From Escherichia coli (GTDB lineage Bacteria > Pseudomonadota > Gammaproteobacteria > Enterobacterales > Enterobacteriaceae): a stretch of DNA of 1,855 nt. Positions 1 to 1,298 of the stretch are shown in pieces; the first letter of the stretch is position 1, and every line of letters starts with the position of its first letter. The stretch lies in the NCBI RefSeq assembly GCF_003334335.1, contig NZ_QOWQ01000097.1, one strand, 5' to 3'. Below the pieces are notes generated by a model. The model saw only the letters and a list, made by a program, of their open reading frames with translations, had not been told where the DNA came from and made no database searches. The translations under genes were made by a program, and so were the position numbers.

Positions 1-1298
1 CTTTTGCTCTGAGCTGCCGCCGTCGCACTGCCAGCTGCCTCTGTCGCCTTCGTGGATGCCGTCGTGGCGCTGCCCTTTGCTGCTGACGCCTGTCTGGTCG
101 CCTCATCTTTTGAAGCAGACGCAGATGATGCCGATGACGCCGCCGAACTGGCGGACGATGCGGCAGCCGTTTTTGAGGATTCTGCGCTGGTTTCCGACGC
201 TTTCGCGTTCGTCTCGGATGTCTTCGCTGCGGAAGCAGACCTCGCTGCTGCGCTGGCCTGTACAGCGGCTTCGCCAGCCTTCGTTGTGGCTGTTGAAGCA
301 GACGATGCAGCACTTTCTGCCGATTTTCCGGCGGCGGTGGCACTGGCTGAGGCCTGCCCGGCACTTGTTGACGCGGCACTGGCAGATAATGCAGCCGCTG
401 TTTTTGAGTCTGCCGCAGCTGAGGCGCTCTGTCCCGCTGCCGTTTCAGAAGACCTGGCGTTCGTCTCGGACGTTTTTGCCGCCTTCGCAGAATTTGCTGC
501 CGCCGTTGCCGAGGAAGCTGCGCTGCTGGCGCTCGAGGCTGCGTTCGTTTCTGATGATTTTGCCGCCTCTTTTGAAGCCGACGCATCCCGTGCTGAAGTG
601 GCTGCTTCTGACGCTTTCGTGGTCGCGGTGGATGCAGAAGTGGCTGCTGATTGTTGTGACGCTGCCGCATTCGTTTCTGACGTTTTCGCGGCACTGGCAC
701 TGGTAGCTGCCGCGCTTTTTGAGGACTCTGCAGCAGCAGCACTTTTCGATGCTTCACTGGCCTTTGTTGATGCCGCTCCTGCGCTGGAAGACGCTGACTG
801 AGCCGACGACGCGGCCTGTCCGGCTGACGTGCTGGCTGCGCGTGCTGAGCCTGCAGCATCAGTCGCATGGGTTGCCGCCTCACGGGCTGATGTGCGGGCA
901 TCGCTGGCTGACTTCTTCGCGGCTGCCGTGTTCTGTGCCACTGCGGACGCGTTACGCGCCACCTCTTCCACCATCAGTTCAAAACGGCGCAGTGCCTCTG
1001 GCCGGACATCATCCTCCGTCATTGCACCGAGGAAATCATTCAGTGTGCCCGGCTTTGAGTCCTCATATACGGTGATAATCCCGGCGTGTGACGGCGGGAA
1101 TCCCTCCACCAACAGACTGACGCTGTACTGACCATACTCGACGTCCATTGTATAACGCCCGGCTTCATCCGGATTTTCTGAGGCCACTGTGTTCACCACC
1201 ACCGTGGTGCTGTTGCGCCTGGCCTTTAGCTGAATGGTGCAGTTTTGTATCGGCTTACCTGCACCATCTTTCAGTACACCTGAAATCAGTACTGCCAT
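1..1298 (-). CDS. stf: Side tail fibre protein (lambda Stf-like), N-terminal 432 codons; C-terminal part lies beyond the window start (3' partial)
   Basis: Hand translation of the minus strand (codons on plus triplets starting at positions divisible by 3) gives ATG at 1298..1296 and no stop down to position 3. An in-frame stop lies upstream at 1340..1338 with no alternative start between. Protein begins MAVLISGVLKDGAGKPIQNCTIQLKARRNSTTVVVNTVASENPDEAGRYTMDVEYGQYSVSLLVEGFPPSHAGIITVYEDSKPGTLNDFLGAMTEDDVRPEALRRFELMVEEVARNASAVAQNTAAAKK..., then an Ala/Ser/Thr-rich repetitive tract ending ...TASTKATEAAGSATAAAQSK at the window edge. From memory this closely resembles the N-terminal attachment domain and repetitive shaft of phage lambda Stf (orf-401) and E. 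coli prophage Stf homologues. The 64-nt gap to lom and the lom-then-stf gene order match the lambda layout. Missing from the ORF track presumably because it has no stop in the window. Confidence 0.9.
   Translation of the reverse strand, partial: MAVLISGVLKDGAGKPIQNCTIQLKARRNSTTVVVNTVASENPDEAGRYTMDVEYGQYSVSLLVEGFPPSHAGIITVYEDSKPGTLNDFLGAMTEDDVRPEALRRFELMVEEVARNASAVAQNTAAAKKSASDARTSAREAATHATDAAGSARAASTSAGQAASSAQSASSSAGAASTKASEASKSAAAAESSKSAAATSASAAKTSETNAAASQQSAATSASTATTKASEAATSARDASASKEAAKSSETNAASSASSAASSATAAANSAKAAKTSETNARSSETAAGQSASAAADSKTAAALSASAASTSAGQASASATAAGKSAESAASSASTATTKAGEAAVQASAAARSASAAKTSETNAKASETSAESSKTAAASSASSAASSASSASASKDEATRQASAAKGSATTASTKATEAAGSATAAAQSK
3..950 (-). repeat. 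Low-complexity Ala/Ser/Thr-rich repetitive tract within stf (predicted fibrous shaft region)
   Basis: From about codon 115 to the window edge the translation is dominated by A, S and T with periodic K/E/Q. Recurring peptide motifs include AAK(T/S)SETNA (4 copies), SASTATTKA(S/G)EAA (2 copies), a related TASTKATEAA, and ASSASSAASSA (2 copies). Confidence 0.8.
204..692 (-). repeat. Four dispersed copies of a degenerate 27-nt repeat encoding the AAK(T/S)SETNA motif
   Basis: Plus-strand copies: 204-230 cgcgttcgtctcggatgtcttcgctgc; 456-482 ggcgttcgtctcggacgtttttgccgc; 540-566 tgcgttcgtttctgatgattttgccgc; 666-692 cgcattcgtttctgacgttttcgcggc. All are in the same codon phase of the stf frame. Identity is by eye only, not computed. 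Confidence 0.7.

Follow-up and report, generated by a model that had tools for sequence, protein, structure and literature searches.

The window analysed here, 1855 nucleotides of Escherichia coli DNA, is the entire contig QOWQ01000097.1 (assembly GCA_003334335.1). At either end the assembly breaks off within a multi-copy prophage gene, in lom at nt 108 and in stf, which encodes the side tail fibre of lambdoid prophages, at nt 1298. Read on the minus strand, it begins with the 3' part of lom (1363..1855, codons 37–199 and the stop), encoding an Ail/Lom outer-membrane beta-barrel (PF06316, Ail_Lom); the contig end removes the beginning of this 199-codon gene. Downstream of lom lies an intrinsic terminator (1308..1336, minus strand), formed by the hairpin AGCCCGCC-GGTTCA-GGCGGGCT (1336–1315; eight pairs, seven of them G-C) and then a T-run. 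The G-rich ribosome-binding stretch GGGGGGAAT (1299..1307, minus strand, read from the sequence) stands directly before the ATG of stf, and the remaining 1298 nt are taken up by stf itself.

The arrangement of this junction is that of lambda. The lom-stf intergenic sequence aligns base for base with the one in lambda, which has a hairpin at the same position, its stem and loop bases changed and its pairing kept, and a start context, GGGGTGAAT ATG, laid out as in the window. A terminator is also annotated at the lom hairpin in phages mEp460 and Ayreon. We thus find stf directly downstream of J-lom, after the terminator, with lom, the hairpin and T-run, and the ATG inside the window and J upstream in the relatives. 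A search of both strands of the window for sigma-70-like promoters returned none. One Rfam match, to Trp_leader (1308–1390, minus strand), covers the lom terminator; at 27 bits against a gathering score of 41 it was rejected, and it is almost certainly a mere resemblance to the terminator hairpin. The Lom protein is identical to that of 17 complete genomes except for T62M (ACG to ATG, window position 1778), a substitution that alone sets the window apart from 16 complete genomes. Among six other alleles residue 62 is Thr in four, Ala in an O78 strain and Ser in lambda, and Met in none.

A sequence-only reading of this DNA had claimed an stf frame open for at least 432 codons, with the 3' portion of the gene lying beyond position 1 of the plus strand. 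Coordinates and placing were correct: translated on the minus strand, window positions 1–1298 give 432 codons free of stops from the ATG at 1298–1296 to the window edge, and homology bears the frame out. That it is missing from the program-made list of open reading frames is due only to its running off the window. The length of the frame is in itself weak evidence, because the Ala/Ser-rich composition also opens three other frames of the same stretch (324, 262 and 234 codons); in 5000 mononucleotide shuffles of positions 1–1298 the frame stayed open from the start for 30 codons on average and for 274 at most.

What settles the identity of the gene is homology. The window product is 85% identical to lambda orf-401 over residues 1–286 (E 3e-117), its residues 1–134 (to nt 897) match the prophage tail-fibre N-terminal domain PF08400 (E 1.3e-71; the search used a full-length relative whose first 432 residues are identical to the window product), PHROG tail-fibre families are matched at up to E 7e-132, and the collar of Ur-lambda is recognised as well (see below). 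An NCBIfam search gave no family for Stf or Tfa. On these matches positions 1–1298 (minus strand) can be assigned with certainty to the 5' 1298 nt of stf, amounting to the 5' 44% of the gene, and the name given to it in the sequence-only reading was the right one. The comparisons establish not only which gene this is but also the domain content and heptad structure of its encoded part.

Residues 1–94 (1017..1298, minus strand) constitute the collar domain, by which the fibre docks onto the tail tip (PF08400; PDB 9e7m/9mgh; PMC12617516), and match the side-fibre collar of Ur-lambda as solved by cryo-EM (chains of PDB 9e7m/9mgh; E 1.6e-48). In Ur-lambda, twelve copies of the collar encircle the tail tip at the gpV/gpM junction, and each trimeric fibre is fed by three of them via short linkers (PMC12617516). 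As expected for a Stf of the lambda type, the collar is followed in the window, after a short linker, by an Ala/Ser-rich heptad shaft, delimited by heptad analysis at residues 102–432 (3..995, minus strand, up to the contig edge); the proximal coiled coil of Ur-lambda Stf comprises residues 102–393 (PMC12617516). The shaft consists of 47 consecutive S-A-x-x-A-x-x heptads, with no stutter and with Ala at position 5 in 44 of the 47. Ala periodicity peaks at 3.5 and 7.0 residues, a signal reached by none of 2000 shuffles. At the DNA level the tract contains dispersed repeats (60–79%) with spacings that are mostly multiples of 21 nt, and Tandem Repeats Finder detected no tandem array in it, only a trivial 9-nt repeat; the periodicity sits at the protein level. 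The encoded part comprises the N-terminal collar and most of the coiled-coil shaft, and the window's Stf would presumably form trimers and dock as the Ur-lambda fibre does.

Set against Ur-lambda Stf (UniProt P03764, 774 aa), which is split in lambda PaPa into orf-401 and orf-314, the gene in the window is alike in its place after J, lom and the lom terminator, in the context of its start codon, in its collar and in its Ala/Ser heptad coiled coil, but this coiled coil is longer by 105 residues (15 heptads). A MAFFT alignment puts the residues missing from lambda Stf at approximately 75..389 (minus strand), a placement that is ambiguous in so repetitive a tract (BLASTP sets the gap elsewhere). 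The 15 extra heptads keep the heptad register and, at ~1.5 Å per residue, would add roughly 15 nm to the proximal fibre. The long form of the shaft is common to many lambdoid phages, including mEp460, phi458, ev099 and 2H10.

The additional length bears directly on the lambda PaPa frameshift. The sequence-only reading had taken the frame still open at codon 432 as consistent with an intact, non-frameshifted gene, with the caveat that the repeat tract might differ in length. We rebuilt Ur-lambda Stf from the lambda record by switching at the C-run GCCC(C)AC from frame 0 to frame +2, obtaining 774 residues, a length consistent with the use of UniProt P03764 residues up to 528 in PMC11338833. The one-base deletion of PaPa falls in this C-run, at lambda codon 395/396 (about nt 20835), and leads to a stop six codons later. 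Codon 432 of the window aligns with lambda codon 327 (...SQSK), and the frameshift site maps about 68 codons (about 205 nt) past the window edge. Because the tract is 105 residues longer than that of lambda, a frame open at codon 432, and hence beyond 401, says nothing about the frameshift site. The identification as stf and the caveat on length are thus upheld, the open frame as support for an unframeshifted gene is not. Moreover, relatives carrying the identical allele diverge from lambda at a mosaic junction near lambda residue 385, about 10 codons before the PaPa site, and the lambda C-run sequence around the frameshift is absent from them, so that this allele has no strictly equivalent position to the end of orf-401. 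An open stf frame beyond codon 401 is, in general, no test of the PaPa lesion, given a coiled-coil tract whose length changes in steps of whole heptads and a mosaic sequence downstream.

The state of the gene can be judged better from its relatives. Looked up as an exact sequence, the 432-aa partial product led to a single record, the 1855-nt contig QOWQ01000097.1, with no continuation. At the level of DNA, the window has full-length matches of no less than 99.9% in 17 complete E. coli genomes, and in all of them the stf part is 100% identical. Sixteen of the 17 share an identical 3560-nt sequence of stf plus tfa, in which stf is one 991-codon ORF with only the terminal stop, and the seventeenth has an stf of 1035 codons, with one extra 44-residue repeat (four versus three). 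In every one of the 17, as in the more distant relatives retrieved, tfa lies directly 3' of stf, and its 194-residue product matches the tail fibre assembly family phrog_105 (E 1e-100). Three more diverged alleles are likewise without internal stops, at 991 codons (the O78 strain), 1132 (ECE218) and 1132 (phage PhiR34_1). In the index of a public assembly collection the 991-aa protein appears, unchanged, in 391 blocks. The window DNA is 100% identical over the first 432 codons to the genes of WP_046464134.1 (991 aa) and WP_000279633.1 (1035 aa), both of them E. coli proteins named 'prophage tail fiber N-terminal domain-containing protein' and encoded in Qin-like prophages near ompW/trp. This is, in short, an ordinary stf allele that many finished genomes already carry in annotated form, and wild lambdoid prophages normally have an intact stf. 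Judging from the identical alleles, stf is likely to be intact in this strain, whatever its form, and it probably consists of one uninterrupted ORF of 991 (or 1035) codons.

In the full-length relative, the coiled coil is succeeded by Phage_fiber_2 repeats (residues 462–590), a beta-rich segment, the PF07484 collar domain and a His-rich tip. Over its last 248 residues the relatives' Stf matches the tip/needle of T4 gp37 (PDB 2XGF; E 1.5e-81), and the likeness extends to what follows, tfa standing next to this C-terminus as the chaperone gp38 goes with the gp37 tip, or Tfa with the fibre of lambda. The N-terminal attachment and shaft of gp37, in contrast, are unrelated to those of Stf, and the gp37-like part is outside the window. 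The identical-allele relatives differ from Ur-lambda in having Phage_fiber_2 repeats of 44 residues, three to four in tandem, an additional beta-rich segment, and a gp37-like tip with a central variable region unlike that of lambda. In the strain studied here the hinge, the 44-residue repeats, the gp37-like receptor-binding tip and tfa would all fall past the contig edge. The Ur-lambda Stf fibre binds OmpC and speeds adsorption (PMC12617516, PMC11338833); the likeness of the relatives' tip to that of T4 gp37 would point to a receptor of the OmpC or LPS type.

Variation in this distal region takes two forms. The 132-nt (44-residue) tandem repeat of Phage_fiber_2 is present in three or four copies in otherwise near-identical stf genes, giving 991 versus 1035 codons; in locus coordinates the repeat tract spans 9941–10336 in the 991-codon locus (L001) and 9941–10468 in the 1035-codon locus (L002). 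In ECE218 and PhiR34_1 there is a mosaic junction at stf nt 1481 (locus position about 5519), after the first Phage_fiber_2 repeat, where the same N-terminal 1481 nt continue into another C-terminal module, of the 1132-codon type. In phage PhiR34_1, moreover, tfa is immediately followed by a serine recombinase of the PinQ/PinR type, a hint that the tail-fibre segment may be invertible.

As for the cause of the break in stf, the places per E. coli genome that match these queries number two to three in the median and up to 15, and the stf sequence runs up to the last base of the contig, with no IS end. For these two reasons we favour a repeat-induced contig break. Several near-identical stf copies in one genome, which short-read assemblers could not resolve, would be the probable cause of the break, rather than an end of the gene, and both breaks would come from another J-lom-stf region of this genome that is identical in part. 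A counterpoint is that many drafts assemble the whole 991-codon gene on contigs of 20–200 kb; because the same allele assembles completely in so many of them, the break seen here calls for a cause peculiar to this strain. With an allele of the ECE218 type as co-resident partner, the exact run shared at nt 1226–1325 would imply a k-mer of non-standard size, 73. That an IS had inserted at the edge of the contig was considered and judged unlikely, the terminal bases being stf sequence.

Taking all of this together, the best explanation, which we regard as likely, is that the window holds the 5' part of the stf of a Qin-like prophage, in the order J-lom-terminator-stf-tfa, and that the gene is probably intact. 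It has to be weighed against the two ways in which the gene could differ beyond the contig edge. One is a break just past that edge, by frameshift, stop, IS or rearrangement, making stf a pseudogene like that of PaPa, and we consider it improbable. The contig does stop short within a gene that other drafts, with the same allele, often assemble in full, and the prophage genes of relatives carry IS insertions and pseudogenes; yet the contig ends in nothing but stf sequence, identical to the intact alleles, where IS sequence would normally stand at the end of a de Bruijn contig that borders on an IS. The lom end is broken too, which fits a second paralogous J-lom-stf region and not a lesion, and 22 of 22 relatives, inspected or DNA-identical, are intact. 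The other is that stf is intact but carries a different C-terminal receptor-binding module, such as the 1132-codon StfR type. The mosaic junction lies only 183 nt past the window edge, out of the window's sight, and the alleles of ECE218 and PhiR34_1 are colinear with the window's gene over nt 1–1481 before they switch module; these alleles, however, are only 93–97% identical over the shared part, whereas the genomes whose stf part is 100% identical carry the 991/1035 type in 17 cases out of 17, and we hold this reading to be improbable as well.

A third account would make the frame a compositional accident, or would place the true gene on the opposite strand, and it can practically be dismissed. 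In its favour are the other frames, likewise open for 234–324 codons, and the antisense orf206b annotated in the lambda record. The window has counterparts of orf206b in two ORFs opposite stf on the plus strand, at 52–801 (249 aa) and 56–706 (216 aa), and gene callers report the same antisense ORF in relatives (245 aa, 2498–3235 of locus L009). The antisense products are, however, of low complexity, the one reported in relatives has no Pfam match, and what they encode merely mirrors the Ala/Ser heptads, while the stf frame has strong homology to a structurally solved virion protein. The two plus-strand ORFs are most likely compositional shadow ORFs and not genes.

The same strand gave matches to the Rfam family isrG (RF01390) opposite the stf coiled-coil tract, at 302–550 and also at 624–714 (both plus strand); with 34 bits, where the gathering score is 100, membership was rejected. 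The 3' end of the isrG alignment coincides with a weak terminator-like site at 528–545 (plus strand), and a promoter-like site was not found. In Salmonella, IsrG is a cis-antisense RNA that overlaps the 5' end of the putative tail-fibre gene STM2243 and is inversely expressed (PMC2330248). The match is explained most simply as tail-fibre gene homology caught by the Rfam model. That an IsrG-related cis-antisense RNA from about 302–550 of the plus strand might modulate stf expression in the lysogen seems to us very doubtful.

The genomic setting of this allele is best seen in finished genomes. In Ecol_AZ155, stf belongs to a Qin-like lambdoid prophage adjoining a truncated ompW and the trp operon; the prophage contains dicA/B/C, relBE, hokD, cspB/F/I and nohA, together with complete head and tail gene sets, but has also taken up IS3 (in the lysozyme gene), IS66 and ISNCY. 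In the closest complete genome (NZ_CP019005.1) the Qin-like prophage with this stf allele has the IS3 in the lysozyme gene, and ISNCY and IS66 in the early region (IS-bearing segments at 17305–18599 and 25986–30643, in coordinates of locus L005), and its head and tail genes look intact. Since this relative's prophage carries IS3, IS66 and ISNCY, an intact stf ORF does not mean that the fibre is ever made, and the prophage, for all its intact stf, may no longer complete the lytic cycle.

The find in itself matters little and its lesson is methodological, concerning the reading of open stf frames, as set out above, and of short contigs that end within stf, which are likely to be assembly artefacts of multi-copy prophage genes. 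The natural length variants seen in these genes, with a shaft longer by 15 heptads and with three versus four 44-residue repeats, could be of some slight help in the engineering of Stf chimeras.
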